From Candidatus Berkelbacteria bacterium Licking1014_7 (GTDB lineage: Bacteria; Patescibacteriota; UBA1384; GWA2-35-9; CG2-30-39-44), in NCBI GenBank assembly GCA_007376535.1, contig VMGK01000001.1, positions 1 through 55,473 on the forward strand: 55,473 nucleotides of DNA. The letters are read 5' to 3'. Of the stretch, positions 8,380-45,586 are shown piece by piece. Made by a program: the position numbers and the translations under genes. Under the pieces are notes generated by a model. The model did not search any database. It was not told the origin of the DNA and worked only from the letters and a program-made list of their open reading frames with translations. How positions within the stretch are numbered: position 1 is the first letter of the stretch; every line of letters begins with the position of its first letter.

Positions 8380-8443
8380 CTATTTTTAATCTCAAAACTT
8401 AAATGTTTTTTACTGAAATTTACAATTTACAATTCTCAATTTA

Positions 8444-8517
8444 CCCGCCTTCATTGCTTGATATTCCACTCGAATTATTCATTCGTGTTCCATTCAGGCA
8501 ATTATGGCGGGCAGGCA
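8444..8517. repeat. Dispersed hairpin repeat (cccgcc...ggcgggcagg); second copy 17108-17212
   Basis: Near-identical copies; the second carries a 31-bp insert. Confidence 0.85.
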
Positions 8518-8553
8518 TTGAATTTACAATGTTTCAATTTACAATTTAACAAA

Positions 8554-8913
8554 CTATTTCAAACTGTTGGTGATTTTTTGAAAAATCATCGTCAATTCTT
8601 GCGCTTCTTTCCAAAGTTGGGTAATTTTATCTTTTTTATCGGGTTCACATTTAGCCAGCATTCTTAACCAATGTTTTGATTCCTGAATTTCTTTTTTGCA
8701 AATAAATATTTTGGTTCTAAAATCTTTCTTGGAAGAGGCGGCATTAGCTTCCATGTAATTAGCGCCAACAGAAGTAGAAGATCTAATTAGTTGAGAAATA
8801 ATTGGCACTGAAATAATTGTCTGCTTTAAGGCGCGGCAGAAGACAATTACCTCCTCGCCAAATTTTGCCGTTCTTTCTTCAAGATTGTAGTTTGTGTTTG
8901 AAAATTGAGTCAT
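8554..8913 (-). CDS. Four helix bundle protein (23S rRNA IVS protein-like, TIGR02436-type)
   Basis: LEERT..F, QLIRSSTSVGANYMEA, SKKDF..K..ICKKE..ES..WL. Confidence 0.92.
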   Translation of the reverse strand: MTQFSNTNYNLEERTAKFGEEVIVFCRALKQTIISVPIISQLIRSSTSVGANYMEANAASSKKDFRTKIFICKKEIQESKHWLRMLAKCEPDKKDKITQLWKEAQELTMIFQKITNSLK

Positions 8914-8985
8914 TGTTTCATTGAAAATTGATTGAAAATTAGAAATTGGAATGTTTGAAAATTGATATTATAGTTTTGGATTTTG

Positions 8986-9570
8986 TCATTTTTTCAGTAT
9001 TTCCTCCAAATACTCTCCTGCTACTTTATTTTTGCTGTCTGAAGCAATCCTCTGTAAAAACGCCACCAAATCCTTTTTATTGACCCACTCTTGGGATTGA
9101 TAAAGATTGATTAAATTTTGATAAGCAGTTCTGAATTCAGGATTGAGTTCAATCGCTTTTTGATAATTCAATGTTGCTGACTGAAAATTCCCCATTTCCC
9201 GCCAAGCATTAGCCAAATAGTTATAATAAACAACGTTCTGCTCAAGACCCACTAATTTATCATAAATATTAATGACGTTTTCAAAATTTCTTAAATTAAA
9301 TTCTGCCAAACCCAGCAATTCTGAGTAGATTACATTTTCCGAGTCGCCCCTTACCACGGGATCTAATAAAATTTTTACCTGCTGATAATCTTGGTCTGCT
9401 TTTGCCTTTAACGCTTTGTGATAATTTTCTTCGGCTAACACCGAGCCCTTGGAAATAACCGACTCGCTATTTTTTGTTGGACGAAAAAATGATAATACCA
9501 CAATTAACGCGAGCACAAGAAGAAAAATAATTATTAAATAAAGAATTTTTCGCTTTCTGCTAATTTTCAT
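8986..9570 (-). CDS. Membrane-anchored tetratricopeptide repeat protein
   Basis: N-terminal TM; YYNYLANAWREMGNFQSA..NYQKAIELNP TPR pattern. Confidence 0.8.
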   Translation of the reverse strand: MKISRKRKILYLIIIFLLVLALIVVLSFFRPTKNSESVISKGSVLAEENYHKALKAKADQDYQQVKILLDPVVRGDSENVIYSELLGLAEFNLRNFENVINIYDKLVGLEQNVVYYNYLANAWREMGNFQSATLNYQKAIELNPEFRTAYQNLINLYQSQEWVNKKDLVAFLQRIASDSKNKVAGEYLEEILKK

Positions 9571-10963: not shown

Positions 10964-11750
10964 TCGCTAAGTCCTCTGCCCGGCTTAGAGGATTAATTTT
11001 TGCCTGTTCTAACATATTATAAATGATTTTTTTGTTTATTGCTAAACCGCTGGCTAAATTATTGACGATTTGCCTCCGTTTGGCGCTAAAACCAATTTTA
11101 ATAAATTTGAAAAATTTCTCTTGCTCCGCGCCCCATTTTGCTCTGGGAATAATTTTTATTATCGCGCTATCAACTTTGGGAACTGGATTAAAATTCTCCC
11201 GCCCAACTTCAATAACTTTTTGAACGTCGCCTGCCATCTGGACAAGTATGGTCAAAAGTCCCCGTTGAGAACTGCCCGGCTCGCTGATTAAACGATTTGC
11301 CACTTCTTTTTGAATGGTTAAAACAATTGTCTGGGGCGGATTTTTCTGGGTGATTAACCGTCGCAAAATAAACGATGTGATGTTGTAAGGTATATTCCCC
11401 ACCACTTTGTAATCTTTAATGTCTTCAAAATCAAAAAATCGCGCGTCCGCGGAAATAATTTTTACATTTTTAAATCTGCCAACCCGTTTTCTGAGTCGTT
11501 CTAAAAGTTCCCAATCCTTTTCTATGGCTAAAATTTTTGCCCTTGTTTGCGCCAAAAAAAAGGTCAAATTTCCTGTGCCCGCGCCAATTTCCACCACTGT
11601 GTCCATAGGTTTAATCTGCGCGCTCGCCACAAGTTTTTGCAAAATTTTTTCGCTGGCTAAAAAATTTTGCCCCCATTTTTTCTTTGGTCTAAACTTTTTC
11701 TTTGGTCCAAACCTTTTCTTAGGTCCAAACCTGTCATTTGACATATCCAT
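10902..11750 (-). CDS. rsmA: 16S rRNA m6,2A dimethyltransferase
   Basis: KKWGQNFL, VVEIGAGTG, VVGNIPYNIT, QKEVA, F.PVPKVDSA, RAEDL. Confidence 0.95.
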   Translation of the reverse strand: MDMSNDRFGPKKRFGPKKKFRPKKKWGQNFLASEKILQKLVASAQIKPMDTVVEIGAGTGNLTFFLAQTRAKILAIEKDWELLERLRKRVGRFKNVKIISADARFFDFEDIKDYKVVGNIPYNITSFILRRLITQKNPPQTIVLTIQKEVANRLISEPGSSQRGLLTILVQMAGDVQKVIEVGRENFNPVPKVDSAIIKIIPRAKWGAEQEKFFKFIKIGFSAKRRQIVNNLASGLAINKKIIYNMLEQAKINPLSRAEDLAIDNWKKIYAIVKKQNVKKQN

Positions 11751-11805
11751 ACCTGCAAACAGGTCTGACCTGTTTGCAGGTTCGAGTATGTCGAGTATAT
11801 CAAAT
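11736..11805. repeat. REP-like palindrome downstream of the Y1 transposase (degenerate copy)
   Basis: atttgacatatccatacctgcaaacaggtc-t-gacctgtttgcaggt...; matches 12515-12575. Confidence 0.85.
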
Positions 11806-11857: not shown

Positions 11858-12484
11858 TTAATCAATTTTGACCGATTTTAGTATCTCTGAACGATGATAT
11901 TTTTGTCTCAAAAAACTCTCATACAAAGTTGGTAAAGATGTCTGTCGTTTTTTATAATCAAAATAGTCCAGTATAATTTTTGTATCCAACCACTTCTGTT
12001 TTCGCTCTCCGGTATAATTCATTAAACTAGAATATGGATAATATAACGGATTTATTCCTATGTGGCGAGGATTTGTGTGAATATATCTTGATGTGTGTAA
12101 CAACTGCTCATCACTTTCTATCAAAGCGGCTTTGTATACTCCTTGACATAGCGACCCGACGCGCGCATATTTCTGATTAAAATAGTTGACATATGTATCG
12201 GATAAAATTTTCATAAATTGAGATATACTTCTGGCTTGATTCTGCCAAATTAACAAATGAAAATGATTAGGCATCAAACAATAAACTAAAAGTTTAATTT
12301 CTTCAAAAAAGCAACTCTTCATTTCATCTTCTTCTGTTTGGGGCGTAAGCAATCGTTTAAGAATTGACAAGAAAAAAACATAATCTTGCTGACACAAAAA
12401 AATGTGCCGTTTTTCAACTCCGCGATTATAAATATGATAATACGAATTATCTAAATAATTTTTAATGACATTTCTACTAGGCAT
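11858..12484 (-). CDS. REP-associated tyrosine transposase (RAYT, IS200-like Y1 HUH)
   Basis: YYHIYNRG, YCLMPNHFHLL (HUH), YFNQKY.R.G.L.QG.YK, RYIH.NP, Y.YSS. Confidence 0.93.
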   Translation of the reverse strand: MPSRNVIKNYLDNSYYHIYNRGVEKRHIFLCQQDYVFFLSILKRLLTPQTEEDEMKSCFFEEIKLLVYCLMPNHFHLLIWQNQARSISQFMKILSDTYVNYFNQKYARVGSLCQGVYKAALIESDEQLLHTSRYIHTNPRHIGINPLYYPYSSLMNYTGERKQKWLDTKIILDYFDYKKRQTSLPTLYESFLRQKYHRSEILKSVKID

Positions 12485-12514: not shown

Positions 12515-12575
12515 ATTTGACATATCCATACCTGCAAATAGGTCTGACCTATTTGCAGGTATGGATATGTCAAAT
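12515..12575. repeat. Perfect 61-bp REP-like palindrome upstream of the RAYT
   Basis: 30-bp arms around a single central T at 12545. Confidence 0.93.
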
Positions 12576-14851: not shown

Positions 14852-16300
14852 TTAGTTTTTAAATTGAACCAACATCTCTTTACCAATTCCCCGAATCAAC
14901 CACATCACTGACAAATATACCAGCGCGCCGATGGCAACCGCAATAAAAACATTTGAATCAATTAAATGATTAATTGCCAGCGCCATAACCAAAGACGAAA
15001 ATAACGCTTTTAAGAATCTGGTAATATGGGGCAAAGTATTGAAAGTTCGTTTAGCCAACCAAACAATCGTAATCAAAACCAATGTCTCGGTAACAATCGT
15101 GGTAAAAGCCGCGGCAACATAACTGTATTTTGGAATAAAAATAACATTGAGCACAATATTTACCAGCACAAAAAGCACGCTGGGCAAAATCAATTTTTTC
15201 TGGTAGCCGCCCGCCACCAAAAGTTGGGAAAAAGATTGCGCCAGAGCGCTCGCAAGAGCGGCGAAAATTAAAATTTTAAGTGTAACCGCAGAATTAGCCA
15301 ATATTCCGCCAAAATAAACAAAGCCAGTGTGCAGATATTCGTCGCCGGCAATCAATCGGACGATCGGAGTTGCCAATATAAAAATTCCCACCACCATCGG
15401 CACGGTGGCGATCGCCAAAAAATCAAACGATTTTTGCACCGCTGTTTTTAGACGGTCATCATGCTTGGCAATATAGCGAGAATAAACCGGCAAGACCGAC
15501 GAAATAAAAATTGCCGGCATCATTAACATCACTTCCAAAATTTTATAACTTGGTCCGTAAATTCCGACATGCTCTGGACCCTTCATCCAAGAAAGCATTA
15601 ACGCGTCCACCCGAAAATACACAAAATGGAGAATTATCGCTATCCCCATTGGCAGCGCTTTGACCATCAAATTTTTCCACATTTTAAGATCAAAAGCAAA
15701 ACTAATTTTAACATATTTTTGAGCCAGCCAATACGCCATTAGAAAATTCGCAAGAGAGCCGATAAGATACGCCAACATCACGAAAATCAAACCTTTTCCC
15801 AAATAGAAAAACCACAACACCACGGCCAATGTTATCGCGCGACTCACGATATCGCTTATAACCGCTTTGTCCATCCGGTAATTTACCTGAAAAACCGCGG
15901 TAATCGTATTTTGCAATGTCTGCCAAAAAAATCCCAACGCGCCAATCATAATCGCATATTTTGTAAGTTGATCATAAGACGGAATTGCCAGAGCGATTAA
16001 AATACCAAGTCCGTAAAATAAAAACGCGCCGCAAGCGCGTATCCCCAAAACATTTGAAGTTATTTTTTGAGAATTTTTGGGATCAATTGACAACTCGCGC
16101 ACTAAAATATAGAAAAAACCTAAATCCGCAAAAATTCCAAAAAAACCAATATAAGCCAGTACAGTCGTATAACGACCAAAATTTCCCACGCCCAGCTGGC
16201 GGGTAAGCACTCCGACAGTAACCAACGAAATTCCCACCAAAATTACTCTGCCCACCATTTGCGCGGCAGTATTGTAAGCCACTTTTTTAGTATAGGTCAT
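14852..16300 (-). CDS. Polysaccharide flippase (Wzx/MOP family)
   Basis: Many TM helices, LTRQLG...FG.Y, D.LMLS......VGIY; adjacent to GTs. Confidence 0.88.
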   Translation of the reverse strand: MTYTKKVAYNTAAQMVGRVILVGISLVTVGVLTRQLGVGNFGRYTTVLAYIGFFGIFADLGFFYILVRELSIDPKNSQKITSNVLGIRACGAFLFYGLGILIALAIPSYDQLTKYAIMIGALGFFWQTLQNTITAVFQVNYRMDKAVISDIVSRAITLAVVLWFFYLGKGLIFVMLAYLIGSLANFLMAYWLAQKYVKISFAFDLKMWKNLMVKALPMGIAIILHFVYFRVDALMLSWMKGPEHVGIYGPSYKILEVMLMMPAIFISSVLPVYSRYIAKHDDRLKTAVQKSFDFLAIATVPMVVGIFILATPIVRLIAGDEYLHTGFVYFGGILANSAVTLKILIFAALASALAQSFSQLLVAGGYQKKLILPSVLFVLVNIVLNVIFIPKYSYVAAAFTTIVTETLVLITIVWLAKRTFNTLPHITRFLKALFSSLVMALAINHLIDSNVFIAVAIGALVYLSVMWLIRGIGKEMLVQFKN

Positions 16301-16417
16301 AGATGAAGTTTAGCAGAAAACCCTTGACAGGGCAAATCTAAATAGACCGGCTGTGGAATAACTTTTCGTAGCGAAAGTTAAATAAGAATTAAGAAATTTT
16401 ACGGGGCAAGTAAATAA

Positions 16418-16535
16418 ATGTCAAAATCCAAATTGTTCCAAATGCCAAATGAATACCAAAATCCAAAATCTTAATGTCAAAAAATTTGGACTTTGACTTT
16501 GATTTGGTCTTTGGATTTTGGACTTTGACATTGTA
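16418..16535. repeat. Gene-less four-helix-bundle-type arm pair (A/C-rich left arm, T/G-rich right arm)
   Basis: 16422-16483 matches 45104-45165 at 58/62 nt. Confidence 0.7.
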
Positions 16536-16627
16536 TAATTTAGGATTTGACAGGATATTGTAAGAGATTGAATGCAAGTGGGAGATTTGTGTCTTGAATT
16601 TTGAGATAATTTTGCATTTTTAGATGT

Positions 16628-16700
16628 CCCGTCGTCGTTCAATCTCTTGCAGAAACCTAATTATATGTTACTGCAAATAGATTTCACTTTGACGGGCAGG
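16628..16700 (-). repeat. Dispersed hairpin repeat; homologue at 33784-33929 with a nested insert
   Basis: Shared tttgcagtaacatataattaggtttctg(c/t)aagagattgaa core in opposite orientation. Confidence 0.8.
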
Positions 16701-16861
16701 CATTTTGAGATTTGAGATTTGAGATGTATTTAGAGTAATAGGTAGAAAAGGTTGTTGCGCAGTGGGTCTACTATCTTAATTTTTTCTACACAAAAACCTT
16801 TGATCTTAACTCTTAACATTAAGATTGAGATCATAAGAAATTGAAAACCGAACGCTTTCCT

Positions 16862-17094: not shown

Positions 17095-17512
17095 AATTTT
17101 CAATTTTCCCGCCTTCATTGCTTGATATTCCACTCGAATTACCTGCCCCTCGTAGTTAATAACGAAGTGGGGTTCATTCGTGTTCCATTCAGGCAATTAC
17201 GGCGGGCAGGCAATCAATTTTCAATGACACAATTTTCAGACATTCCATATCAATTTTTAATTTTCAATTTCTAATTTTCAATCAATTTTCAATGACACAA
17301 TTTTCAGACATTCCTGTTTGTTACATTGAAACATTGTAAATTCAATGAAACGAGCCTACTCGTCCACGCGCTCCTCGCTCGTTGAAATAATTTTGAATTT
17401 TAGATTAGATTTTGAATTTTGAATTGTGATTTTGCCTGCCCGCTAATCGCCTGAGCGATAGCGATGGCGGGCGGGAGATTTGAGATTTTAATTTTGAGAT
17501 TTGAATTTCGGG
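17095..17512. repeat. Composite repeat-rich intergenic region (heptamer-like arms, 35-bp direct repeat, CCTGCCC hairpins)
   Basis: aatcaattttcaatgacacaattttcagacattcc twice (about 17212 and 17280); matches the upstream arm of the 8554-8913 gene. Confidence 0.7.
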
Positions 17513-23237: not shown

Positions 23238-23363
23238 CTTCAAATCAAATTTAAATAATAAAATGCACGACTTAGGCAAAATTACCTTATGTTATATTTT
23301 CTTGGAATTTTAGTCATTGGGATTTGATTAGAAATTAGGAATTAAAAATTAGAAATTAATTTT

Positions 23364-24455: not shown

Positions 24456-24507
24456 TTTCTAATTAATAAACCCTAAGTCCTAAATCTTAAACTCTAAACA
24501 ATATTCA

Positions 24508-24879: not shown

Positions 24880-25010
24880 TACTTTAGTTTAAATTTTTGA
24901 ATTTATTATTTGTTTAGAACTTAGGATTTAGGGTTTAAAACTTGAGCAGTTGTTGGTGCTTAATTAGGAATTAGAAATTAGGTTAATTAGTAATTTAAAC
25001 TGATAAAGGC

Positions 25011-28770: not shown

Positions 28771-28844
28771 ACTCTCACTATATCAAATCCTTGACTTTTG
28801 GTCAAGCAAAATTAATGTTTATGTCCGTTTCGGGTCTAAGGTAT

Positions 28845-29787: not shown

Positions 29788-29793
29788 AACAAC

Positions 29794-30408: not shown

Positions 30409-30413
30409 CCAAT

Positions 30414-30464
30414 GAGCCCTGCTCGTCGTATGCCTAGCATACTGACGGGTGGGGCTTTTCTTTT
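30414..30464 (+). terminator. Intrinsic terminator
   Basis: gagccc..cgtc.gtatgc-cta-gcatac.gacg..gggct followed by ttttctttt. Confidence 0.7.
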
Positions 30465-30489
30465 ATCTAAAATCAAATATAATGAAAAT

Positions 30490-31191: not shown

Positions 31192-31439
31192 ATGGATTTG
31201 ATTGATTGGAGACTCTTTTTTTGGTCGTCGGTTATCAAACCAATGTCTATCTCTAGCAAACAAATAGCCATGCGCAAATAATGCTGGAGGTTTTTTTTGT
31301 GTACTTCTGATATTTTTTCATAATCCCCTAGGTTGATACCAAGCGCTTCACAAATAACCTCGGGAGTATAGTAACCAGTATGGCACAGAGCTTCTTTGTT
31401 TTCCAAGATACCAACCTCCCTTGACGCGTTCGGTCTCAA
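31170..31439 (-). CDS. Hypothetical protein
   Basis: 89-aa ORF co-oriented with the upstream gene. Confidence 0.4.
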   Translation of the reverse strand: MRPNASREVGILENKEALCHTGYYTPEVICEALGINLGDYEKISEVHKKNLQHYLRMAICLLEIDIGLITDDQKKSLQSIKSIQECLAV

Positions 31440-31463
31440 TTGTATACTAAAAACAAAATAAAA

Positions 31464-33224: not shown

Positions 33225-33226
33225 AT

Positions 33227-33730
33227 TTATTGCTTATTTTGAGATTGTTTTAGGGCTTCTTGAGTAATGCCCGCCATTTCTATTTTGTAAATCATCGCCT
33301 CTTGAAGGAAAAACTTTTTAACATCTATTTTTCTAGCGATTAAAAATTGGTCTATTTGAGCTTGGTCGCCTGCTTCTAAAACCCTTTTCCATTCATCTAG
33401 ATCCTGCTCGGGCATTGTTTCGAAAACTCTCTGCATCGCGCGATTTTTTATCGTCGCCATCATTTTCTGATATAATACTTGTTTTTTCTCCTCTGGCATA
33501 TTTTTGGCACCCATTAGCTCCAAGATGTCTTTATTCAAAATATCCTCGGTGGAAATTTCGTCGGCAGGAGGAATAGAGGCGTTAACTTGGCTTGAGGTTG
33601 GCTGGGTTTGGGCTTGGCTTTGTCCGTCGGTCAAGGCGCCACCAGCGCTAGCGCCAGCTAGATTATTTTGATCCTGCCCAACAGCTGGGGCAGCTGTGTC
33701 CTGATTGTTGGCTAAATTTTGCGTGTTCAT
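33227..33730 (-). CDS. DUF5663-like CPR protein with Gln-rich N-terminus
   Basis: DILELMGAKNMPEEKK..LY.KM..TI..R pattern. Confidence 0.65.
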   Translation of the reverse strand: MNTQNLANNQDTAAPAVGQDQNNLAGASAGGALTDGQSQAQTQPTSSQVNASIPPADEISTEDILNKDILELMGAKNMPEEKKQVLYQKMMATIKNRAMQRVFETMPEQDLDEWKRVLEAGDQAQIDQFLIARKIDVKKFFLQEAMIYKIEMAGITQEALKQSQNKQ

Positions 33731-33952
33731 AATTTTCTCCCGCTCCTGAATTGCGTTTCAAAGCAGAAAGCAAGTTCAGGAAGTCCGCCAAAATGAAATC
33801 TACCGTGCCCGCCAAAGTGAAATCTAATTTGAGAAGAGAAATAATCATCTACTTCTCAAAGAGATTGGACGACGGCGGGTTTGCAGTAACATATAATTAG
33901 GTTTCTGTAAGAGATTGAATGACGGCGGATTAAATTTTTACTTTACTTTTAA

Positions 33953-34342
33953 TTATTTTAACTTATTTTTAACTTTTTTAATAATTTTCTCCGCAATGGC
34001 TAATGCTTTTTCCGCGTCTTTTTTGGTATGAAATTCAAAATAAGCATCTGGATATCGGGTTTCAAAATAACAACCAGACAACCATTTAATGCTTCTAATA
34101 TCAATATTGATTTTTTCTCCGTTTTTGCGCAGAAGACTCAGCAATTGAGCTAGATCGTGTGTTTTGGTGAATTTTATTTCTTTGTGTGTTAGCCAACCCT
34201 TAAAATATTTTTCAACCGCTTGCTGGCTATGAAAGCAAGCATTATTAAATAATTTCGTTTGCGTCAAATAACCAGCGGATTTTAAATCTTCCTCGGCAAA
34301 TAATATCCATTCTTTAACGAATTGTTGTTTTGTTTTTTTCAT
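33953..34342 (-). CDS. HEPN domain protein
   Basis: W...AEEDL.SA, ACFHSQQAVEKYFKG, KTHDL..L, ETRYP. Confidence 0.9.
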   Translation of the reverse strand: MKKTKQQFVKEWILFAEEDLKSAGYLTQTKLFNNACFHSQQAVEKYFKGWLTHKEIKFTKTHDLAQLLSLLRKNGEKINIDIRSIKWLSGCYFETRYPDAYFEFHTKKDAEKALAIAEKIIKKVKNKLK

Positions 34343-34667
34343 AAATAGTTTGACCTTCATCTAATGCTTCGCGTAAAAAAAACATCCATTTAGGCACATC
34401 TGAGACCTCTTCTGGTGAATAAACGCGAGGTTCTATTCCGTAAATATCTCGTAGTTTAACAAGCACTTGGTAGACCCTTTGATGCGGACGCACTTTATCC
34501 ACTCCTTTTTTAATAATCAAAAGATCTATGTCGCTATCCTCGTTAAAATCGCCGTGGGCGACCGAGCCGTAGAGAATGATTTTTTCCGGATCGTAGTATT
34601 TGGCGAGGCGTGCCACCGCTTTTTTTATCTTGGCGTCAAATTGTTTTTTAAGGGCTGACCTAGTCAT
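34314..34667 (-). CDS. Minimal nucleotidyltransferase (MNT)
   Basis: PEKIILYGSVAHG...EDSDIDLLII, VYSPEE, EG..IYE. Confidence 0.9.
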   Translation of the reverse strand: MTRSALKKQFDAKIKKAVARLAKYYDPEKIILYGSVAHGDFNEDSDIDLLIIKKGVDKVRPHQRVYQVLVKLRDIYGIEPRVYSPEEVSDVPKWMFFLREALDEGQTIYEKNKTTIR

Positions 34668-34742
34668 ATTTTATAATTTAATTATGCAATTATTTATCTG
34701 TGTTATTTGCGTATCCGTATATGATTTTATTATATAAATTGC

Positions 34743-34771
34743 TTGACTTTTTGTCAATTGTGTGGTATGAT
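34743..34771 (+). promoter_or_regulatory. Sigma70-type promoter overlapping a divergent -35 (ttgac-N6-gtcaa)
   Basis: TTGACT-N17-TATGAT with TG extension. Confidence 0.6.
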
Positions 34772-34837
34772 TGCAATCTAAAAGTTTAAATCTCAAATTG
34801 CCTCATCGGCAATCGCCGTAGAGGCGATCTCAAAATT

Positions 34838-34936
34838 AAGGAACAGATAATTGGTTTTATTCCAGCGCTGTCATTCCTGAGTCGAATGAAATTTACTATC
34901 AGGAATCCATGCAATCAAGCCAGATATTTGTTTCTT
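34838..34936. repeat. About 98-bp hairpin repeat; second copy 37192-37289
   Basis: Ends gaacagata...tatttgtttc; inner gtcattcc(t/c)ga...tc(a/g)ggaatcc. Confidence 0.85.
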
Positions 34937-34967
34937 GTAATTCTAGCCCCCGAAGGAGGAAGGAAAG

Positions 34968-35306
34968 ATGCAGAAGACCCAGACCATCGAAAACCCCCAG
35001 ACCAACTGGGAAGGGTGGGTCGCTTACCTCGCCAGCGCGATCAACGCGCTGGTAGAGGAAAATGAGGGGCGATTCTCCGCCATCGAGGCGGAGAACAGCG
35101 AGCTCCGCGAAGAGATCGCGGAGCTGAAAGGACGCCCCGAGCTCACGAAGGAGGCGCACGATCGCCTCCACCGCGAGCACTCCCGCGAGATGCGGGAGAA
35201 AAGGGAGACAGAGGAAAGCGCCCCCACCCACCCCGCCTCCGACCCAGCCCTGCCTCAGCCCAGCACGGCGATCGAGGCGCCCCCCCTCCCTGAATACCTG
35301 CAGTAA
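34968..35306 (+). CDS. GC-rich coiled-coil orphan ending in LPEYLQ
   Basis: SD aaggagg; heptads IEAENSELREEIAELK; terminator 35330-35376. Confidence 0.75.
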   Translation: MQKTQTIENPQTNWEGWVAYLASAINALVEENEGRFSAIEAENSELREEIAELKGRPELTKEAHDRLHREHSREMREKRETEESAPTHPASDPALPQPSTAIEAPPLPEYLQ

Positions 35307-35329
35307 GGAGGGACTGTTCGCGCCAACTT

Positions 35330-35376
35330 GCGCCAGTTATGTGTCTCGCACACACATAGCTGGCGCGTTTTTTTTT
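35330..35376 (+). terminator. Intrinsic terminator
   Basis: gcgccagttatgtgt...acacatagctggcgc followed by T9. Confidence 0.75.
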
Positions 35377-35455
35377 AAAATTATATACCGCTGTTTTTTA
35401 TCAAAAAACCCGCGTCCCATTTCTGGTAGCGGGTAATAAAACAAAACATCACACA

Positions 35456-36847
35456 TTAAGAATCCAAGCCCAACATTGTTGTTGGCTGAAAATAGTTAAC
35501 CCCCAAAGAATCAAGGAATCGCCCAAGCGCGCCTTGTTTCCCTATGGGCACATGGTATGGAATTACAAATTCTGGTTTAGCAAGCTGGAGCAACAACTTA
35601 ATATCTAGCTGGCTTCCGTGCCCAGAATTATGGATATTTGCCTGCGCAAACACATTCTCCGGCGGATTTGTCCCTAAGGCGCGATAGGTGCTAGGTGAAA
35701 CCACCGCATAGCCCTCCGAGCAGATAGCAGACAAACGACGCACCATTTCAACGACTGGCGCTTCGTTGCCGGGTATGATCTCACTAGACAGAATAATAGA
35801 AGCTTCCTTATGAAGGCGTAATCGCTGGCTTTCACCCAGCGAAGCTAATGTCAACACTGCGTATGGCTCGGCTTGCGATCCTGTGCAGGCAATCAGTTCA
35901 GATCCAAACCCCAAATACTCTCCATCAAACAGCTCAAGAGATTCTCCAATCCCCCAAACCGTTTCCATGGCAGTGCCTTTGGGATGAAACGAACCAATAC
36001 CCAGATCGCGCGCCTTTTTACCAATCATTTGCCAACGCTCAAGATTGGAAGCAAAACCAGATACGATAATCTGCTTCGCTCCTTTTACAAGCAAACGACC
36101 CAACACTTTGCCAACAGTGCTAACCGTCTCGTCCTCTGATTGGGTATAACCAGGGCGATCGCAGTAAAGCATATCAGCAATCACAATATCAAACGGTCTC
36201 TCAGCGCACAGCACATCAACCATCACCTGCGCCATTTGAGAGCCACCGTAATTCTCCTGCAATCGAAAATCACTCATAAACAGCACCTTAAACCACTTGT
36301 CACCCGAAAGCTTAACCTTAATGATAAAGCTCTTAGTCCCGGGGATAGAGTGAGGCACTGTAAAGCTAGTTACCTTAACAAGGTTGCTCAAACTCACGCT
36401 CGAGCACAACCCTTCAAGCTTGGCTATCTGGGGAAACTCTTGCTCGTTATACTCAAACATCGCCTCTGTCATTTTCTCACCAAATGGTGATAGATGAAGT
36501 ATCGGCAAATTATCGTCCCCAACTACTTCGCGCGCCATAGCGTAAAACTCTGGCAACGCTCCTGCATGGTCAAGGTGGCTATGGGTAATAAACAGATGCT
36601 TGATTTTGTGGAGAATATCCTTGAGCGAGTCAAGGTAATGACTACTCGATTTTGATACATGGGCTTCTTGGTCGACGATTGCGTCTTCTGCCCCTAAACT
36701 ACCGGGGGCTTTTCCGCAATCAATCTCGATCCAAAAATCCTCTTGCTTAAAATGAATCGGAAAACAATTGCGCCCAACTTCACGCAAACCTCCAAGGCAA
36801 GAAATACTCAAACAAGGATTGCTAAAAAGTCTATGATGCTTATGCAC
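35456..36847 (-). CDS. RNase J-like MBL/beta-CASP nuclease (no C-terminal domain)
   Basis: LGGLREVGRN, IDCG, THSHLDHAGALP, HSIP, FASNLER, TGSQAEP, IPGNE, HNSGH, IPYH; SD aagggagg before GTG 36847. Confidence 0.85.
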   Translation of the reverse strand: MHKHHRLFSNPCLSISCLGGLREVGRNCFPIHFKQEDFWIEIDCGKAPGSLGAEDAIVDQEAHVSKSSSHYLDSLKDILHKIKHLFITHSHLDHAGALPEFYAMAREVVGDDNLPILHLSPFGEKMTEAMFEYNEQEFPQIAKLEGLCSSVSLSNLVKVTSFTVPHSIPGTKSFIIKVKLSGDKWFKVLFMSDFRLQENYGGSQMAQVMVDVLCAERPFDIVIADMLYCDRPGYTQSEDETVSTVGKVLGRLLVKGAKQIIVSGFASNLERWQMIGKKARDLGIGSFHPKGTAMETVWGIGESLELFDGEYLGFGSELIACTGSQAEPYAVLTLASLGESQRLRLHKEASIILSSEIIPGNEAPVVEMVRRLSAICSEGYAVVSPSTYRALGTNPPENVFAQANIHNSGHGSQLDIKLLLQLAKPEFVIPYHVPIGKQGALGRFLDSLGVNYFQPTTMLGLDS

Positions 36848-36915
36848 TTTGGTTCCTCCCTTTTTTCGCAAGTTGTCAAAGATCAGTATTAAACTGAAAT
36901 AAGAAAGCTTGTTAA

Positions 36916-37076
36916 GAGCTTGTCTGATAACTGCTCTTGAAGCGAAAATGAAATTATTTTAGGCGAAAAAGGAAAATTATGAGGAAAGGTAGCTAATGCT
37001 ACCTTGACGACTAATTTTCATTTTAGAGCCAAAATTAATCATTTGTAGCTATCAGATGTAGTTATTAGACAAGCTC
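36916..37076. mobile_element. MITE, copy 1
   Basis: TIRs gagcttgtctgataact...agttattagacaagctc flanked by TAA on both sides. Confidence 0.85.
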
Positions 37077-37143
37077 TAAAGCCCTTTATATTTTAGTTTA
37101 AATTTTGAATAATTTTGAGATTGTAATAAATATACCATATCCC

Positions 37144-37172
37144 TTGACAAATGTCAATATCTATGATATAAT
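37144..37172 (+). promoter_or_regulatory. Consensus sigma70 promoter, back-to-back with the RNase J-like promoter
   Basis: TTGACA-N17-TATAAT with TG; ttgacaaatgtcaa dyad. Confidence 0.75.
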
Positions 37173-37290
37173 CCTAACTTAAAGTAAAAACAGAAACAGA
37201 TACTTGGTTTTATTCCATCGCCGTCATTCCCGAATCGAATAAAATTCGCTATCGGGAATCCATATAATCAAGCTAACTATTTGTTTCTTA

Positions 37291-37451
37291 GAGCCTGTCT
37301 AATAACTGCTCTTGAAGCGAGAATAAGATTATTTTAGGCGAAAAAGATAAATTATGAGGAAAGGTAGCTAAAGCTACATTGACGAGTAATTCATCTTTTG
37401 TAGCCAAAATAAGCTATTTACAGCTATCAGATGTAGTTATTAGACAGGCTC
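37291..37451. mobile_element. MITE, copy 2
   Basis: TIRs gagcctgtctaataact...agttattagacaggctc; colinear with copy 1. Confidence 0.85.
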
Positions 37452-37518
37452 TTGCACATTGACAACTTGACAGCAAAACGCTTCGCAAAATCTGCCAAAA
37501 CCAAAGGAGGAAAATCCA

Positions 37519-38211
37519 ATGGCAGACGAATCCACAGGTACCGCAGAAGCCATCCCAGAGGGTGGTGAGGACACAAAGGTCGAGGTCGAGGACGTTGGCG
37601 AAAGCCAGACGCCCGAGACCGAGACAGACAACGAGCAGGGCGGGAAGACCGAAGAGGTCGTTGACCCTATGCCCACAGCCCTCGCCGACCTCGCGGACGA
37701 AGCGCTCCGCGCGCTCATCCACGAGATCGCATCAGATGTCGCCCTTGAAGCCCTTACGGGCTTTGGGGAAGACATAGACAAGACAACCAAGCGGATGGAT
37801 GAGGCGCGTCAAGCGCTACTCATTGAAATCCGCACCGGACGCGAGGCGTCCGAAGCCGAGGTTGTGGCTGGCGCTGCCAGCATCGTTGACAACCTCGGCA
37901 AAAGCGTTGCCCGGACCCAGTCTAGCGTGCCCGAACTCCGGGCAGAGCTGGTAAGGTCCGAGCAGGGGCTGCGCCGGGAGATCGAGGAGCTCCGAGAGGG
38001 AATGAAGTACCTCAACGACGAGCTCCAGCTCTGGAAGGGAACGGCGCAAAATCTGGCGCGGATCCTCGAAGCCCGCAAGGTGCTTCAGGAACTCCAGCCC
38101 CAGCCTGCCCCGACCCCAACCAAGACGTCCGCAAGCCCGGTATCCGCCCCGACCCAGCCCGAACCCCGGTCCGCACCCGACCTGCCCGACTTCTTACGGG
38201 ATGTGAGGTGA
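37519..38211 (+). CDS. GC-rich acidic/coiled-coil orphan ending DLPDFLRDVR
   Basis: SD aaaggagg; coiled coil LRREIEELREGM..LNDEL; Pro-rich linker. Confidence 0.78.
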   Translation: MADESTGTAEAIPEGGEDTKVEVEDVGESQTPETETDNEQGGKTEEVVDPMPTALADLADEALRALIHEIASDVALEALTGFGEDIDKTTKRMDEARQALLIEIRTGREASEAEVVAGAASIVDNLGKSVARTQSSVPELRAELVRSEQGLRREIEELREGMKYLNDELQLWKGTAQNLARILEARKVLQELQPQPAPTPTKTSASPVSAPTQPEPRSAPDLPDFLRDVR

Positions 38212-38217
38212 GCCCCA

Positions 38218-38889
38218 GTGGCAAACCCCACATTCTTTGAAAGGATCGGCTTTGGGGAGGTGATAAGGGAGCAAAAGCAGAGAGAGGTTGAAAACGAGCT
38301 TTACGCTCGCAAGATTCAACCCCACCCTACTGCCCGTGCGCCCCAGCCCCCTCCCCAACAAACCAAACCAGTTCGCCTGCGAGGATCAGCGGAGAAAGTT
38401 TTCCGCGAGGTCTTCAAAAGCGAACCCGGCTGGAGAGGCAAACCTAACCCCAAAACCCTTCCGCTGGACATTTTGTTCGGACCAGTTCCGAGCAACCGTT
38501 ATAGCGCGAGAAATGGGGAAGGGCGTTCCCCTCGTCCTCAGGCAACTGAGGGTGTGGTGGAGTTTCGCAACTGGATCCCCGGTCACCGGGGAAAAGTTGT
38601 GATTCATCGCGAACAGCTTTCTGGCGAAGAGTACGCAAGTGCTCTTGCCGAAGCTAAAGCGATCTGGGCTTGCCCAGAGCTCCATCACAAGTACGAGGGT
38701 AAGCTGGTGTCACATCGGCAACCAGCCCCAGCACCGCCAACTTTGCCCGAATGGCTTCGCATTTCTGCGTCGGCTATCCAGCCGGCAATAGAAGCAACAT
38801 CGCAGCCACAAAGGCTAACCTCCCAGATCTTGGAGCTATGCCCAAAGCTCCTTGATTTTCGACTCGCAATGGGCAGAAAAGGTTCCTGA
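38218..38889 (+). CDS. Orphan protein (internal TLPEWLR)
   Basis: GTG start after gaggtga SD; in operon. Confidence 0.6.
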   Translation: MANPTFFERIGFGEVIREQKQREVENELYARKIQPHPTARAPQPPPQQTKPVRLRGSAEKVFREVFKSEPGWRGKPNPKTLPLDILFGPVPSNRYSARNGEGRSPRPQATEGVVEFRNWIPGHRGKVVIHREQLSGEEYASALAEAKAIWACPELHHKYEGKLVSHRQPAPAPPTLPEWLRISASAIQPAIEATSQPQRLTSQILELCPKLLDFRLAMGRKGS

Positions 38890-38941
38890 TTACCCTTGTT
38901 CCCAAAATCAGAATCCATTCCCCGAGGAGGGAAAACAGACC

Positions 38942-39727
38942 ATGAACCCCGTAATCACCGCCTTTCAGGCGGTCGTAAAGTACCTCTTCGCCCAAGGTGA
39001 AGAGGCGATCAGCCAGACCATCGAACTGGCAAAGAGCCAGTTCGATGCCATCACCAGCGCGCTTGCCCAAAAGACCGGGCAGGAGCTGGCGAATGTCGCT
39101 AGCGCGCTCCAAGCAATGGTCGAAGTGGAATACACCTCGATCGGGGCGTTTTGCCAAGCGGTCGAGGCAAAGATTCTGGCGAGCGCGGGAGCAACCATCC
39201 CCGCCTTCCTCGCCACCGCCCCGACCCCGACCCAAACCCCCCAGCCCAGTGCCCCCCCCACTCCGGACCAGATCACCACTGTCAAGGCGTTGGTCCGCGC
39301 CGGCGCGGACGCTGACGAAGCGTTTCGCGTCGTCTTGGGGCGGAACCAGGACGGCACCGAATGGGTGCCAACTGGCAAGCCCGGCGAGTGGGCGAAAGCC
39401 CGCCAGCTCGCCTATGGGATGACGATCATCTTGTCGATGAAGGAGGAGGAGCCCGAGGCGCTAAAATGGCTCCACCACTTTCACGACAAGACCAAGGAGG
39501 CTATCCTGCACACTGCCAAAGAGGCAGAATCGGTGCAGGACTGGCGGGAACGTCTCGTTCGGCAGTACGCGGGCGCTGTTCGCGCCCGCAAAGCGAATGA
39601 GACCGTAGTCGCGATCGGAGCGCAGTGGGGGTTCGACATCGACCTCCACACCATCGCCGACAAAGGGGAAGAAGGAGCGGAGGAAAACGGCACCACCACA
39701 GTGCCAGACTTCCTCCGTCGCTCCTAG
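38942..39727 (+). CDS. GC-rich helical orphan ending VPDFLRRS
   Basis: SD gaggagg before ATG 38942. Confidence 0.75.
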   Translation: MNPVITAFQAVVKYLFAQGEEAISQTIELAKSQFDAITSALAQKTGQELANVASALQAMVEVEYTSIGAFCQAVEAKILASAGATIPAFLATAPTPTQTPQPSAPPTPDQITTVKALVRAGADADEAFRVVLGRNQDGTEWVPTGKPGEWAKARQLAYGMTIILSMKEEEPEALKWLHHFHDKTKEAILHTAKEAESVQDWRERLVRQYAGAVRARKANETVVAIGAQWGFDIDLHTIADKGEEGAEENGTTTVPDFLRRS

Positions 39728-40023
39728 CCCCCGCCCCGACCACCCCCGAAAGGAGTTTTACTCCCCAGCCAGTGAGCTGATTACTGGCTGGGGAGACATC
39801 CAAAATCAGCCCCTGCCTGCTTGGGTTAAAGCAGAGATCATGATGAAAGGAGGTGTCGCGCGATGCGGCGCCACCTGACCATCTAGCCCGCCGCCCACGC
39901 AAGGGCAGGCGGGCGACCCCACAACCCACCCCCCGGGGAGAGCCCACCCGGGGGAATCCCCGTCCGTCCCCGCCAGCAATTGCTGGCGGAGGTTTTCTTT
40001 TGCAAAAATATAGTCCTTTAACC

Positions 40024-40052
40024 TTGACAAACGGATAAAAATATGGTACAAT
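40024..40052 (+). promoter_or_regulatory. Sigma70-type promoter
   Basis: TTGACA-N17-TACAAT with TG extension. Confidence 0.65.
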
Positions 40053-40093
40053 TCAAATGTCTCAAAATCAAGAAGAAAGGTTGATGATTCGAA

Positions 40094-40546
40094 ATGTCCG
40101 AAGAGAAAGTTCGTTTTGTCCCGGCGCTCGTCGAGGCGGAGATTACCCGCCTCGGAGTGCACGATTACGGCTACGGAGACGTAGCCGTAATCGTAGAAGG
40201 GTCCCCCGATTTCCCCGACCCTGAGGTCGGGGACCAGCTGTACCTCCTTGACGGGGTAGTAATACCCGTCAAGGAATCGGGGATGCAGGTTGGGGATCGC
40301 GCCGTCATCGGCGTGATACCCAACAAAAATCCCGACGCGCCCCAGCGATTCGTCGGGATCTTCCTCCAGCGGGAGGAACTGGAGGAACCTGCTACCGCCA
40401 CCCCTGCAACCCGGCGCCTCGCCATCGAGGTTGAGGCGCCGACAGAACTCCTGCGGGACGCCAGCCGCTGGCTGGCAGACGCGCTGGCGGAGTTCGGCGA
40501 GAAGTTTCCGGAGGCGACCGCAAACCTCCGGATCCTGCCCGCCTAG
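40094..40546 (+). CDS. GC-rich orphan (beta-rich N-domain, small C-domain)
   Basis: 150-aa ORF between promoter and terminator 40579-40614. Confidence 0.7.
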   Translation: MSEEKVRFVPALVEAEITRLGVHDYGYGDVAVIVEGSPDFPDPEVGDQLYLLDGVVIPVKESGMQVGDRAVIGVIPNKNPDAPQRFVGIFLQREELEEPATATPATRRLAIEVEAPTELLRDASRWLADALAEFGEKFPEATANLRILPA

Positions 40547-40806
40547 CCCTGCCCCCGCCCGCGACCAGATCTGTCTGTGCCCGCCCGTCCCTTTGGACGA
40601 GGCGGGCTTTTTTTATAGAAAAAAAGCTAATCAGACGCGAATTAAATCGCGAATAATCACGAAATCGCTAATCAAATCTCTAATTTGAGCACTAATAATC
40701 GCGAATACAAGTTTAAGAGATTGCCACTCCCGCCAGCTGGCGGAATCGCAACGACAAAAATGGCAATCGCAATGACAAAAGGTTAAAAATCTGCTACAAT
40801 TAATAT

Positions 40807-41034
40807 ATGAAACCAAACCAAAAATTTATCTGGGACTATGACGCCCAGTCGCTTGATCTAAAAAATCCGCAGGTTTTAAAATGGTATCTCGCGCGCAAAG
40901 TTAATTTTGGCGATTGGCAGTCAATTGACCATAATTTACTTAAAAAATATCTATCCCAACTTGATATTGACCCAACCTTAAAAAAAATGCTTAAAAAATA
41001 TTATGCTTACCAAGCCACAAAAACTCGCTCTTAA
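40807..41034 (+). CDS. Small putative antitoxin (DUF6922-like)
   Basis: FIWDYD...LDL.....W...R.VNFGD; overlaps the AbiEii-like gene. Confidence 0.65.
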   Translation: MKPNQKFIWDYDAQSLDLKNPQVLKWYLARKVNFGDWQSIDHNLLKKYLSQLDIDPTLKKMLKKYYAYQATKTRS

Positions 41035-41638
41035 AATAATTTTTGACTCTAATCTGGCTAAAATCAGCGCTTGGGGCGGCGGGACCGCGCTATCAGAAGT
41101 GTATTTGCATCATCGTCGATCTAGCGATATAGATATAATTCTGTCTCAAATGCCACCATTAAGCGATCTAACTTTATTAGTTAAACAAATAAAATCTGCG
41201 CTCAGGGCAGGCAAGGTTATCTCTTATTCTAAAATGAATCGTTTTCAATATGTGTTTATTAGCGCAAAAACACAATTGAAACTTGAATTTGTTTTTTATC
41301 CTTTTGTAAAATTGAGCAGAATTAAACGGTGGGGAAATGTACGGGTGGAATCGCTTTTTGATATGGCTGCGTCTAAAACCTTGGCGAGTTATCAACGCCA
41401 TGAGCCAAAAGACACGGTAGATATGTATTTTTTGCTAAAAGATAAATTCCCCCTTGCCAAGTTGGTTAAGGGGGTTGAGAAAAAATTCGGCGAGACAATT
41501 GACGCGGCCCATTTGCTGGCAAAATTGACTGATAATTTAGAAAAGTGCCTGGCAATAAAACCGTTGCTGTATAAAAAATTTGATAAAAAAACCGTTGAAA
41601 AATTCTTTCAGCAAGAATTTAATCAATTAAAGTTCTAA
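41003..41638 (+). CDS. AbiEii/AbiGii-like nucleotidyltransferase
   Basis: GGGTALSEVYLHHRRSSDID; K..A..QR...KD..D.YF. Confidence 0.85.
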   Translation: MLTKPQKLALKIIFDSNLAKISAWGGGTALSEVYLHHRRSSDIDIILSQMPPLSDLTLLVKQIKSALRAGKVISYSKMNRFQYVFISAKTQLKLEFVFYPFVKLSRIKRWGNVRVESLFDMAASKTLASYQRHEPKDTVDMYFLLKDKFPLAKLVKGVEKKFGETIDAAHLLAKLTDNLEKCLAIKPLLYKKFDKKTVEKFFQQEFNQLKF

Positions 41639-44408: not shown

Positions 44409-44688
44409 AATCAAGCCAAGCAGGCTTGACAATTTCTAATTTTTAATTTCTAATTTCTAAACAAATCTAAATGACCAAACTCCAAATCTAAAAAATTGTT
44501 TAGAATTTAGGATTTAGAGTTTAGGGTTTATCGGTAAGGAGGGTTGTGCCCCAGTATAAGGTGCCACAAAATATAGATTTGGCTGACCCCATAAAATTGC
44601 TTTCTGAAAAAGGGACTGCGTCCTCTAATTTCAAAAGCGCAATTTACGGGGCGAGACCTTGCCGCAAATTAACCCAGAGGAGTTCGTA

Positions 44689-45090
44689 ATGCCTCAGTAT
44701 AAAGTGCCACAAAATATAGATTTGGCTGATAAAATTGTTGGACCGCTTACCTTATTGCAGTTTGCCTATCTTTTGGTGGGCGGAATGATTGCCTTTGGAA
44801 TTTTCAAAACCGGCAATTTAATAATTTTTATTTTAATCGGCGCGCCGATTGCCTTGCTTTCTCTGGCGCTGGCTTTTGTCAAAGTGCAAAATATGCCTTT
44901 TGGAAATTTTTTATTGAATATGATTTGGTTCACTCTTTCGCCCAAAGCGCGCGTCTGGCGCCATTCCCAATCCAGCCAACCAACTCAAATAAAAACAGAC
45001 GATCAAAAAAATGCCAGCCAGCAAGTTGTGGAAAGAAAAATCCTGAATAAAAAAAACCTCTTTGAAATCAGCAAGAAATTGGACAGATAA
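44689..45090 (+). CDS. PrgI-family membrane protein (VirB3-like)
   Basis: MPQYKVPQNID..DKIVGPLTL.QF.YL, two TMs, P..RVW. Confidence 0.85.
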   Translation: MPQYKVPQNIDLADKIVGPLTLLQFAYLLVGGMIAFGIFKTGNLIIFILIGAPIALLSLALAFVKVQNMPFGNFLLNMIWFTLSPKARVWRHSQSSQPTQIKTDDQKNASQQVVERKILNKKNLFEISKKLDR

Positions 45091-45130
45091 TAGAAAACAA
45101 TGACAAAATCCAAATTGTTCCAAATGACAA

Positions 45131-45496
45131 ATGAATACTAAAATCCAAAATCCTAATGACAAAAAGTATGATTTGGAAGAAAGAACCGCCAAGTTTGCCG
45201 AAGAAGTTTTAGTTTTCCTTAAAACCATCGAAGAAACAACCATAAATAAGCCGATCATCAGTCAGCTTGTCAGAGCGGTTACTAGTATTGCGGCTAATTA
45301 TTGCGAAGCTGATGGAGCTGAGTCGAAAAAGGACTTTAAGCACAAGATAGCAATTTGCAAGAAAGAATCTAAAGAAACAAAATTATGGTTAAGAATGCTG
45401 GCAAAAGTCAATCCCGAAATACAAGAGAAATACCGCAAATTCTGGCAAGAAGCTCAAGAATTAACCTTGATTTTTTCAGCGATTTTTAAAAAATAA
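45131..45496 (+). CDS. Four helix bundle protein
   Basis: YDLEERTAKF, QLVRA.TSIAANYCEA..AESKKDF.HK..ICKKE.KET..WL. Confidence 0.92.
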   Translation: MNTKIQNPNDKKYDLEERTAKFAEEVLVFLKTIEETTINKPIISQLVRAVTSIAANYCEADGAESKKDFKHKIAICKKESKETKLWLRMLAKVNPEIQEKYRKFWQEAQELTLIFSAIFKK

Positions 45497-45586
45497 TTTG
45501 ACATTTCGTCATTTGTCTGCCAGCTGGCAGATTAGGATTTGATTTGAAATTTGACATTTGAGCTTTGAAATTCATAATTTATTATT

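Follow-up and report, generated by a model that had tools for sequence, protein, structure and literature searches.

The window analysed here is a stretch of 55,473 nucleotides (positions 1 to 55,473 of contig VMGK01000001.1, contig C33 in our numbering) from Candidatus Berkelbacteria bacterium Licking1014_7, whose genome comprises 806 kb in 41 contigs and is designated G000 in the genome comparisons. It carries three genes for small four-helix-bundle proteins, each lying between two complementary arms, and gene and arms together are referred to as elements A, B and C. The gene of element A is located at 8554-8913 on the reverse strand (119 aa), that of element B at 24508-24879 on the forward strand, directly 3' of rpoD (123 aa), and that of element C at 45131-45496 on the forward strand (121 aa). 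A preliminary description of the sequence had recognised three paralogues at 8554, 24508 and 45131 that are co-oriented with their neighbours, and both observations hold: the three genes are intact, share the strand of the neighbouring genes and score above the cut-offs of Pfam family PF05635 (E values of 4e-14, 1e-10 and 1e-14 for A, B and C; 53.1, 41.9 and 55.1 bits, cut-off 33.8) and of TIGR02436 (1e-20, 3e-16 and 2e-21; 73.7, 59.7 and 76.6 bits, cut-off 24). The proteins of A and C are 59% identical, those of A and B 43%, and those of B and C 44%. The whole genome holds ten PF05635 matches, including a broken copy on contig C2 and a shortened copy on contig C21. Elements A, B and C are sited between protein genes, outside the rRNA location that defines an intervening sequence (IVS). 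Intervening sequences in 23S rRNA have been on record since about 1990, and we know of no accepted explanation for their origin or for the role of the small IVS open reading frame (ORF).

The arms are built from heptamers. The 5' arm of element A (8914-8965, reverse strand) is a CAATTTT-type array with a period of 7, and its pairing runs into the first codons to about 8888. On the same strand, the 3' arm starts at the stop codon with an inner part (8516-8556), contains a nested GC-rich hairpin repeat with a GGGCAGGC end tag (8445-8516) and ends with an outer part (8405-8444) that pairs with the outer 5' arm. Element B has a 5' arm of TAAAYYC heptamers at 24467-24507, with arm-like sequence through codons 1-12 to 24543, and a 3' arm at 24910-24937, both on the forward strand; the 3' arm is identified by its complementarity (the two arms are 82-85% complementary), by the fold and by its likeness to the arm of a cassette in the related genome G004. 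In element C, also on the forward strand, a 5' arm of CCAAAAT/CAAATGN heptamers at 45099-45165 holds the ATG at 45131 and codons 1-12, and the 3' arm at 45497-45580 begins right after the TAA. In all three elements the start codon and the first 7-12 codons lie within the 5' arm, and the 3' arm follows at the stop codon or immediately behind it. With the arms reaching over the start codon and up to the stop codon, the loop contains the gene alone. The best self-similarity was found at period 7 in all ten arm or empty-hairpin sequences tested in the window, and genome-wide in 15 of 16 such sequences, compared with 29 of 500 random 60-nt windows.

Whole elements of 506-591 nt were folded by minimum free energy, and the pairing of the 5' and 3' arms was retained in each, as expected from the earlier placement of every paralogue between complementary arms. 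In A, 8948-8888 pairs with 8556-8423; in B, 24467-24545 pairs with 24796-24937; in C, 45087-45160 pairs with 45508-45588. Under a strict span rule, the folds contain 33 (A), 29 (B) and 50 (C) long-range pairs, while 150 random 520-nt windows of the genome have a median of 11, with at least 25 in 29 and at least 40 in 3 of them. When duplex formation was tested on nothing but the 90-nt flanks, B (z -3.5) and the copy on contig C8 (z -4.4) gave a significant result, and A (z -0.6) and C (z -0.3) did not; their 5' arms extend into the coding region and are missed by such a test. This flank-only test was replaced by the whole-element folds and by an inverted-repeat score with controls, in which 6 of the 8 scorable PF05635 genes rank 35th or better among 719 genes (hypergeometric P 2e-7).

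Each paralogue had also been credited with a gene-less counterpart, which proved correct for C and A and did not withstand the shuffled-query control for B. The gene-less C-type hairpin (16417-16535, forward strand) keeps the ATG and about 12 codons and then enters the 3' arm. Its likeness to element C, first noted between 16422-16483 and 45104-45165 with the start codon included, extends to 67 nt at 92.5% identity (16417-16483 vs 45099-45165, ATG included). The gene-less A-type copy (17236-17350, forward strand) is partial, with its left arm partly duplicated and the outer right arm missing; 17265-17301 matches the reverse complement of 8912-8948 at 97.3% over 37 nt, so that the match reported between 17248-17302 and the reverse complement of 8905-8968 is real and shorter than claimed. 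The presumed counterpart of B is a gene-less hairpin at 44432-44530 on the forward strand, and its 28 nt at 93% identity (44496-44523 vs 24910-24937) are within the range of shuffled queries; the hairpin belongs to a family with AATTTCT heptamers and is no proven counterpart of B. A half-element consisting of an AATTTCT-family 5' arm lies at 23309-23357 on the reverse strand, upstream of rpoD.

Low complexity of the arms had been named as a possible source of these similarities and was controlled with 100 dinucleotide-shuffled queries per arm. The top genome hits of the C arms reached 94 and 76 bits, compared with shuffled maxima of 38 and 34, and those of the A arms reached 78 and 62 bits, again with shuffled maxima of 38 and 34; for the B arms, the best hits had 44 bits and the shuffled maximum was 34-44, with 1 and 0 hits above it. 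Low complexity thus explains the B pair and does not explain the A and C pairs. Folding of 16405-16545 and of 44425-44535 gave a single long hairpin in each case (z -4.8 and -3.2, respectively), and none of 200 dinucleotide shuffles matched either in stability. The partial A-type copy of the window had a z of -0.8, its stability being equalled or exceeded by 34 of 200 shuffles, and complete A-type empties on other contigs had z of -4.2 and -3.9 (0/200). An ungapped genome-wide hairpin finder, which misses imperfect arms, returned 46 hairpins compared with none in a block-shuffled genome, and within the window it reported a palindrome at 12515-12575 alone. A local-fold survey over 331 of the 806 kb, run without a shuffled control, yielded 93 low-GC single hairpins, and their polarity was AC>GT in 5, GT>AC in 2 and mixed in 86 under an over-strict classing.

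The empty forms share both ends with the filled elements. C-type empties resemble C at 92.5% over 67 nt on the left and at 93-95% over 38-50 nt on the right, and A-type empties resemble A at 97% over 37 nt and at 95-100% over 23-39 nt. The C arm family has copies on at least 8 other contigs and the A arms form another multi-copy family, in agreement with the earlier proposal of non-autonomous derivatives, inasmuch as gene-less forms exist in multiple copies. The block found only in the gene-carrying form spans about 45165/45174-45495 in C and about 8596-8893 or longer in A, and a second A-only block, the nested GC-rich hairpin at 8445-8516, is absent from the gene-less A-type copies. The C-type empties on contigs C7 and C11 read '...gacaaa TAA tttgacat...', and in element C about 330 nt of gene are found between gacaaa and TAA. 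One A-type empty copy retains ATGACTCAATTTTC. The copy on contig C21 stops after about 33 codons and passes straight into its own 3' arm. Considering the ATG and TAA kept in the empties together with the shortened C21 copy, the simplest reading is that a filled element lost its gene body, and we infer that the gene-less A and C forms are internal-deletion derivatives of filled elements. The reverse event, a gene body devoid of start and stop dropping into a ready-made hairpin, is the less simple reading.

This junction structure bears on an alternative in which the hairpins are independent repeats of the repetitive extragenic palindrome (REP) or REP doublet forming hairpin (REPIN) type, or miniature inverted-repeat transposable elements (MITEs), moved in trans by Y1 or other transposases, with genes that landed in their loops or were captured there and the empties simply unoccupied. 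Empties are indeed far more numerous than filled copies, and nested repeats form a mosaic in the spacers of the genome. Of five Y1_Tnp genes in the genome, four were among the 719 genes scored, and strong inverted repeats flank all four; a 60-nt palindrome family found on 9 contigs brackets the Y1 gene of the window (11858-12484). Moreover, 19 of the 22 genomes that have Y1_Tnp also have PF05635, compared with 8 of the 19 that do not (Fisher P 0.007, the related genomes being non-independent). However, in A, B and C the arms provide the start codon and abut the stop codon, so a captured gene body would need to lack both, and the half-deleted copy on contig C21 also speaks against capture, as does the fact that arm type tracks gene subfamily across genomes and phyla. 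The 8 genomes that carry PF05635 and have no Y1_Tnp match speak against mobilisation by Y1, and the palindromes flanking Y1, which are a family distinct from the heptamer arms, speak against the REPIN-type explanation. We therefore judge this alternative unlikely.

The gene-less hairpins are not confined to spacers. One 23S rRNA gene was found in the assembly (contig C6, 16256-19660, 3405 nt), and it carries six gene-less inserts of 85-136 nt at sites corresponding to E. coli positions of about 173, 546, 1163-1184, 1709, 1871 and 2129-2155, which were derived from an alignment with the E. coli 23S gene at 69% identity and are accurate to some tens of bases. The inserts at about 546 and 1163-1184 occupy what we take to be the classic IVS sites in helix 25 and helix 45. 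A passage of PMC4990558 names helix 45 as an IVS site. All six inserts have the layout of an A/C-rich part followed by a G/T-rich part, with a period of 7, and five of them share segments of 23-49 nt at 88-100% identity with copies on 10-18 other contigs. The copies in the window that match 23S inserts are at 44431-44464, 23309-23357 and 16700-16722; the 44432-44530 hairpin agrees with an insert at 97% over 34 nt, and its AATTTCT family is present in three of the inserts. The inserts near 1871 and 2129 share 63-68 identical nt despite their unrelated rRNA sites. These shared segments indicate that, on the level of sequence, the gene-less hairpins of spacers and the short intervening sequences of the 23S gene are one population. 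Three of the inserts have in addition a G+C-rich clamp (GTGCTTCGCAYRG ... CYSTGCGGAGC) outside the heptamer arms, which is without counterpart in the intergenic copies inspected.

Comparison with relatives places the three elements in a wider context. Of 41 genomes from this class, G000 among them, 27 have PF05635 matches; the highest number, 17, was found in a genome of 0.8 Mb. The inverted-repeat score had a median of 30 at 29 loci of related genomes; at 102 shifted controls the median was 15 and the highest value 24. A score of at least 26 was reached at 16 of the 29 loci and at none of the 102 controls (Mann-Whitney P 2e-12). At 22 of the 29 loci, the beginning of the 3' arm is -12 to +9 nt from the stop codon. 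In two copy-rich relatives, most strong matches have arms and the arm sequence differs copy by copy; gene similarity and flank similarity were weakly correlated there (rho 0.23-0.25). A mismatched-locus control was considered as a null and dropped, as the C-subfamily arms of different genomes are mutually complementary. A metagenome scan for close strains, made with the neighbour gene at 14855-16300, gave a best match of 39% identity.

Fixation of the genes at the same loci across the lineage, which had been named as an outcome that would speak against mobility, was not observed: of 12 genomes, two (G000 and G007) have a four-helix-bundle gene 3' of rpoD, and the identity of only 31% between its two products makes two separate occupations of the site probable. 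The unit of arms and gene has also changed place between genomes. The best relative of B, found in the genome G004 of the same order, is a cassette whose protein is 60% identical over 118 aa and a reciprocal best match, and the downstream neighbour of the G004 cassette has its ortholog here on contig C4, not beside B. The arms of the two cassettes are 71-78% identical (74-78% for the 5' arm, 71% for the 3' arm), the gene body is 60% identical, with 63/76/41% at the three codon positions, and the DNA just outside the arms is 27-43% identical, with different neighbours. This pair is a measured case of arms better conserved than the enclosed gene, which is added here to the earlier observations. 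The closest relatives of C are 54-71% identical to it and stand nearer to it than its own paralogues do (59% and 44%); they are found in Patescibacteria, Planctomycetota, Gammaproteobacteria, Thermodesulfobacteriota, Bacteroidota, Omnitrophota and others. These genomes are metagenome bins in which single assignments may be wrong, and several of the contigs exceed 200 kb. An inverted-repeat score of at least 26 was found in 62 of 75 C relatives and period 7 in 38 of 54 arms tested. Flanks like the arms of C itself accompany 31 (5') and 25 (3') of the 75 C relatives, compared with 1 of 29 (5') and 1 of 29 (3') in other subfamilies. The comparisons show that gene and arms are inherited and relocated together and that the unit has spread over many phyla.

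These data also have to be weighed against the possibility that nothing here is mobile, i.e., that the arms are a cis-acting RNA structure for stability or translation with the start codon buried in it, and that the gene-less hairpins are decayed genes and unrelated heptamers kept alike by gene conversion. Such a role would suit arms that overlap the start codon and leave no room for a separate ribosome-binding region in the loop, as well as the position of the 3' arm start near the stop codon in 22 of the 29 related loci; the paralogues are old, and the codon-position identities of the B pair point to a gene under purifying selection. On the other hand, gene-less copies are 92-100% identical at unrelated loci on many contigs and occupy two non-homologous 23S sites, C has nearer relatives in other phyla (up to 71%) than among its paralogues in this genome, the neighbours of the B-type cassette differ between G000 and G004, and just 2 of 12 genomes have a family gene 3' of rpoD, the two belonging to unrelated subfamilies. 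We consider a purely cis-acting role quite improbable.

The nature of the protein gives further clues. By sequence, C matches the solved S23-family protein 2rld with an E value of 1e-10. A single-sequence structure prediction for C has helices at residues 15-34, 40-61, 66-91 and 95-120 with a mean predicted local distance difference test (pLDDT) score of 78, and the other four models scored 46-58. Residues 1-12 of C are predicted to be disordered and are exactly those encoded by the 5' arm. The top structural matches of the C model are 2rld (E 8e-5) and 2gsc, and chains of Avd, the accessory protein of diversity-generating retroelements (DGRs), follow lower in the match list with template modelling (TM) scores of 0.54-0.60 to 4dwl and 8ube. 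A homopentamer is reported for a Xanthomonas member of the family in a passage of PMC4990558. Profile searches gave no transposase family match for the A, B and C proteins, and the four-helix-bundle protein is the sole ORF of the unit, which bears out the earlier view of an element that encodes no transposase. PADLOC gave no match for the three proteins, and at the gathering threshold of Rfam, tRNA-Ser was the sole match.

The fold raises the question of whether the genes encode DGR Avd subunits or partners of a reverse transcriptase that copies hairpin RNA into DNA. Besides the shared four-helix bundle, such a link could draw on the description of PF05635 as Avd-like in a passage of PMC10053308, on the finding that 14 of the 15 relatives that encode a reverse transcriptase have PF05635 as well, and on weak PF05635 matches that adjoin reverse transcriptase genes in several relatives, as judged by comparison of coordinates. 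However, the best matches in structure and sequence are the S23-family proteins 2rld and 2gsc, not Avd. The sole reverse transcriptase (RVT_1) of the genome is on contig C22, which has no PF05635 match, and PF05635 is carried by 13 of 26 genomes without a reverse transcriptase match, one of them with 17 matches. Because the only such enzyme lies on another contig and 13 family-bearing genomes have none, involvement of a reverse transcriptase is unlikely. Unlike Avd, the three genes have no neighbouring reverse transcriptase, and no pair of template and variable repeats together with a reverse transcriptase was seen beside the hairpin-wrapped copies in the window. An Avd-type function therefore seems to us very improbable.

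We lean towards the interpretation that A, B and C are IVS-type cassettes located outside rRNA, with heptamer arms and a PF05635 gene in the loop. Such a unit would be transcribed as a part of the host's own transcripts; for element B, no terminator-like site precedes 24997-25026. The arms could then zip into a stem of 40-50 bp that would be cut by RNase III, by analogy with known 23S intervening sequences, and a gene for this enzyme is present in the genome (contig C29, 10716-11105). Cutting would leave a usable host RNA and release the loop as the message for the four-helix-bundle protein. The removal of the stem-loop would explain why hairpins are tolerated in the sole rRNA operon found and inside operons. 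The tie between arm sequence and gene subfamily over long distances suggests that the protein may recognise the heptamer arms of its own subfamily. For copying at the DNA level, Y1 (IS200/RAYT-like, from REP-associated tyrosine transposase) transposases acting in trans on hairpin DNA might be one candidate, and nothing was found that ties the five Y1 genes to the heptamer arms.

Several observations weigh against the IVS-type cassette interpretation. None of the approximately 190 PF05635 matches lies inside a 23S gene in the 30 genomes with a located 23S gene, and B has no empty form that passes the shuffled-query control. The divergent family genes on contigs C3 and C27 (2 of the 8 scored) have no arms. 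No constant target-site duplication or fixed terminal motif was seen when ten C-type flanks were compared by eye, with boundaries blurred by adjacent repeats. In six C-type copies, 1 of 16 predicted pairs was compensatory, in an alignment made unreliable by shifts of the heptamer register, and a test of G.U vs C.A in the six 23S inserts gave 14 vs 10, i.e., no strand signal. The gene-carrying paralogues are old: identity was at most 65% in 114 within-genome pairs of the two copy-rich relatives, whose closest gene pairs were 59-65% identical, and therefore nothing indicates that the gene-carrying form has been copied recently. Recent movement is evident for the gene-less forms only. Finally, the link between arm type and gene subfamily could reflect plain common descent and not recognition by the protein.

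The closest known systems are the ORF-bearing 23S intervening sequences. The passages of PMC4990558 on Coxiella burnetii describe an IVS in helix 45 with a 28-bp stem, an S23p ORF in the loop and excision by RNase III, and heptamer repeats (GACAGAT) just upstream of the ORF. With the intervening sequences of Coxiella and Leptospira as presented there, the three elements share PF05635, an inverted-repeat stem with the ORF in its loop, the lack of a transposase, presumed expression from the host transcript and heptamers upstream of the ORF. They differ in their location between protein genes, in their arms, which are heptamer arrays of 40-80 nt overlapping the start codon, and in belonging to dispersed families with many gene-less copies; likewise, cutting by RNase III, which in classical intervening sequences takes place without religation, has been demonstrated for the Coxiella IVS and would apply to A, B and C by analogy. 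The six inserts of 85-136 nt in the 23S gene fit the short ORF-less intervening sequences of Salmonella and others. Excerpts of PMC11270868 report, for the 23S genes of the Candidate Phyla Radiation (CPR), many short non-intron insertions without ORFs at known IVS sites, and ORFs of the 23S_rRNA_IVP type in some rRNA insertions; the link made here between 23S inserts, intergenic hairpin families and cassette arms does not figure in those excerpts. With Avd, a relationship to which is stated for PF05635 in PMC10053308, the proteins share the four-helix-bundle fold (4dwl, 8ube), and they differ from it in the lack of template and variable repeats nearby and in occurring in genomes without a reverse transcriptase match.

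Pairs of transposons and MITEs likewise consist of a long gene-bearing form and many short, internally deleted forms that share its ends, and the likeness to MITEs and REPINs extends to hairpin-forming short forms, to nesting and to RAYT-like Y1 genes with flanking palindromes in the genome. In contrast to transposons, the gene of the long form encodes a 120-aa four-helix bundle without a known catalytic role and no transposase, the arms differ between cassettes of one genome, and no target-site duplication has been established. In contrast to REPIN/RAYT systems, the palindromes flanking Y1 at 11740-11792 and 12515-12575 are a family of their own, unrelated to the heptamer arms.

A bolder reading, which we offer as speculation and consider rather doubtful, is that a small ring-shaped protein recognises its own arms and that gene and arms constitute a new mobile element without transposase that crosses phyla, for which the rRNA intervening sequences would be the visible landing sites and many spacer hairpins the non-autonomous offspring.

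In this genome, gene-carrying cassettes, a half-deleted copy, many gene-less hairpins and six 23S hairpins are found side by side. This suggests a route to the IVS: a cassette would lose its gene, and the small hairpin would then spread wherever the transcript tolerates a removable stem. The same reasoning might account for some of the heptamer-repeat hairpins in bacterial spacers. It predicts that RNase III cuts at the arms in mRNAs and that the protein binds its own heptamers. What is new here is the series of filled, shortened and empty forms with exact junctions and the connection of six 23S inserts with intergenic families. Our literature search retrieved no description of PF05635 genes enclosed by hairpins at sites other than rRNA, nor of the gene-less families; it did not cover the supplements of PMC11270868, which may detail rRNA sites.

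Some further features were recorded in the arms and around them. A 16-nt palindrome of the CYGCCAGCTGGCRG type is nested in the 3' arm of C at 45516-45531. Palindromes of this type are tiny insertions inside arms and other repeats, found also on contigs C16, C21, C1 and C3 and absent from the sister copies on contigs C7, C11 and C24. GC-rich hairpin repeats of several families, all ending in GGGCAGGC, are located at 8445-8516, 16640-16700 and 17095-17210 and occur genome-wide, often nested in one another and in heptamer arms; the GGGCAGGC motif has 154 hits in the genome, some of them by chance in genes. The 3' arm of C contains the best promoter-like site of the region (45551-45578; TTGACA, 16-nt spacer, CATAAT; 11 of 12), which ends 9 nt before the ATG of the next gene at 45587, and the TTGACAT heptamer itself resembles a -35 box. 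The start of the PrgI-family gene (about 55 nt, MPQYKVPQNIDLAD...) is present twice, at 44546-44600 and 44689-44743, about 140 nt apart as judged by eye, with the extra copy immediately behind the gene-less hairpin at 44432-44530, which points to a local duplication linked to the insertion of a repeat.

The Y1 ORF at 11858-12484 (reverse strand, 208 aa) matches Y1_Tnp, the IS200-like transposase family, with an E value of 2.5e-8 and lies between copies of the near-perfect palindrome of about 60 nt (11740-11792 and 12515-12575) that recurs on 9 contigs. This is a RAYT layout with REPIN-like repeats, and there are five such Y1 genes in the genome. Right after element B begins a stretch of about 15 kb (25187-40600) with a G+C content of 0.43-0.64, compared with about 0.40 in the genome, which contains pairs of HEPN and nucleotidyltransferase genes at 28068-28770 and 33956-34667, a gene for a collagen-repeat protein and many ORFs without a family match; a foreign island and a join in the assembly are both conceivable. 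An AbiEii-like gene follows the high-G+C stretch at 41003-41635. Between B and this stretch, the terminator-like hairpin at 24997-25026 overlaps a strong promoter-like site at 25011-25039 (TTGACT, 17-nt spacer, TATATT, with TG). The region 24997-25190 has no Rfam match at the gathering threshold, and the G+C-rich stretch within it that lies 3' of the promoter-like site contains no long ORF on the forward strand and may be a small RNA.

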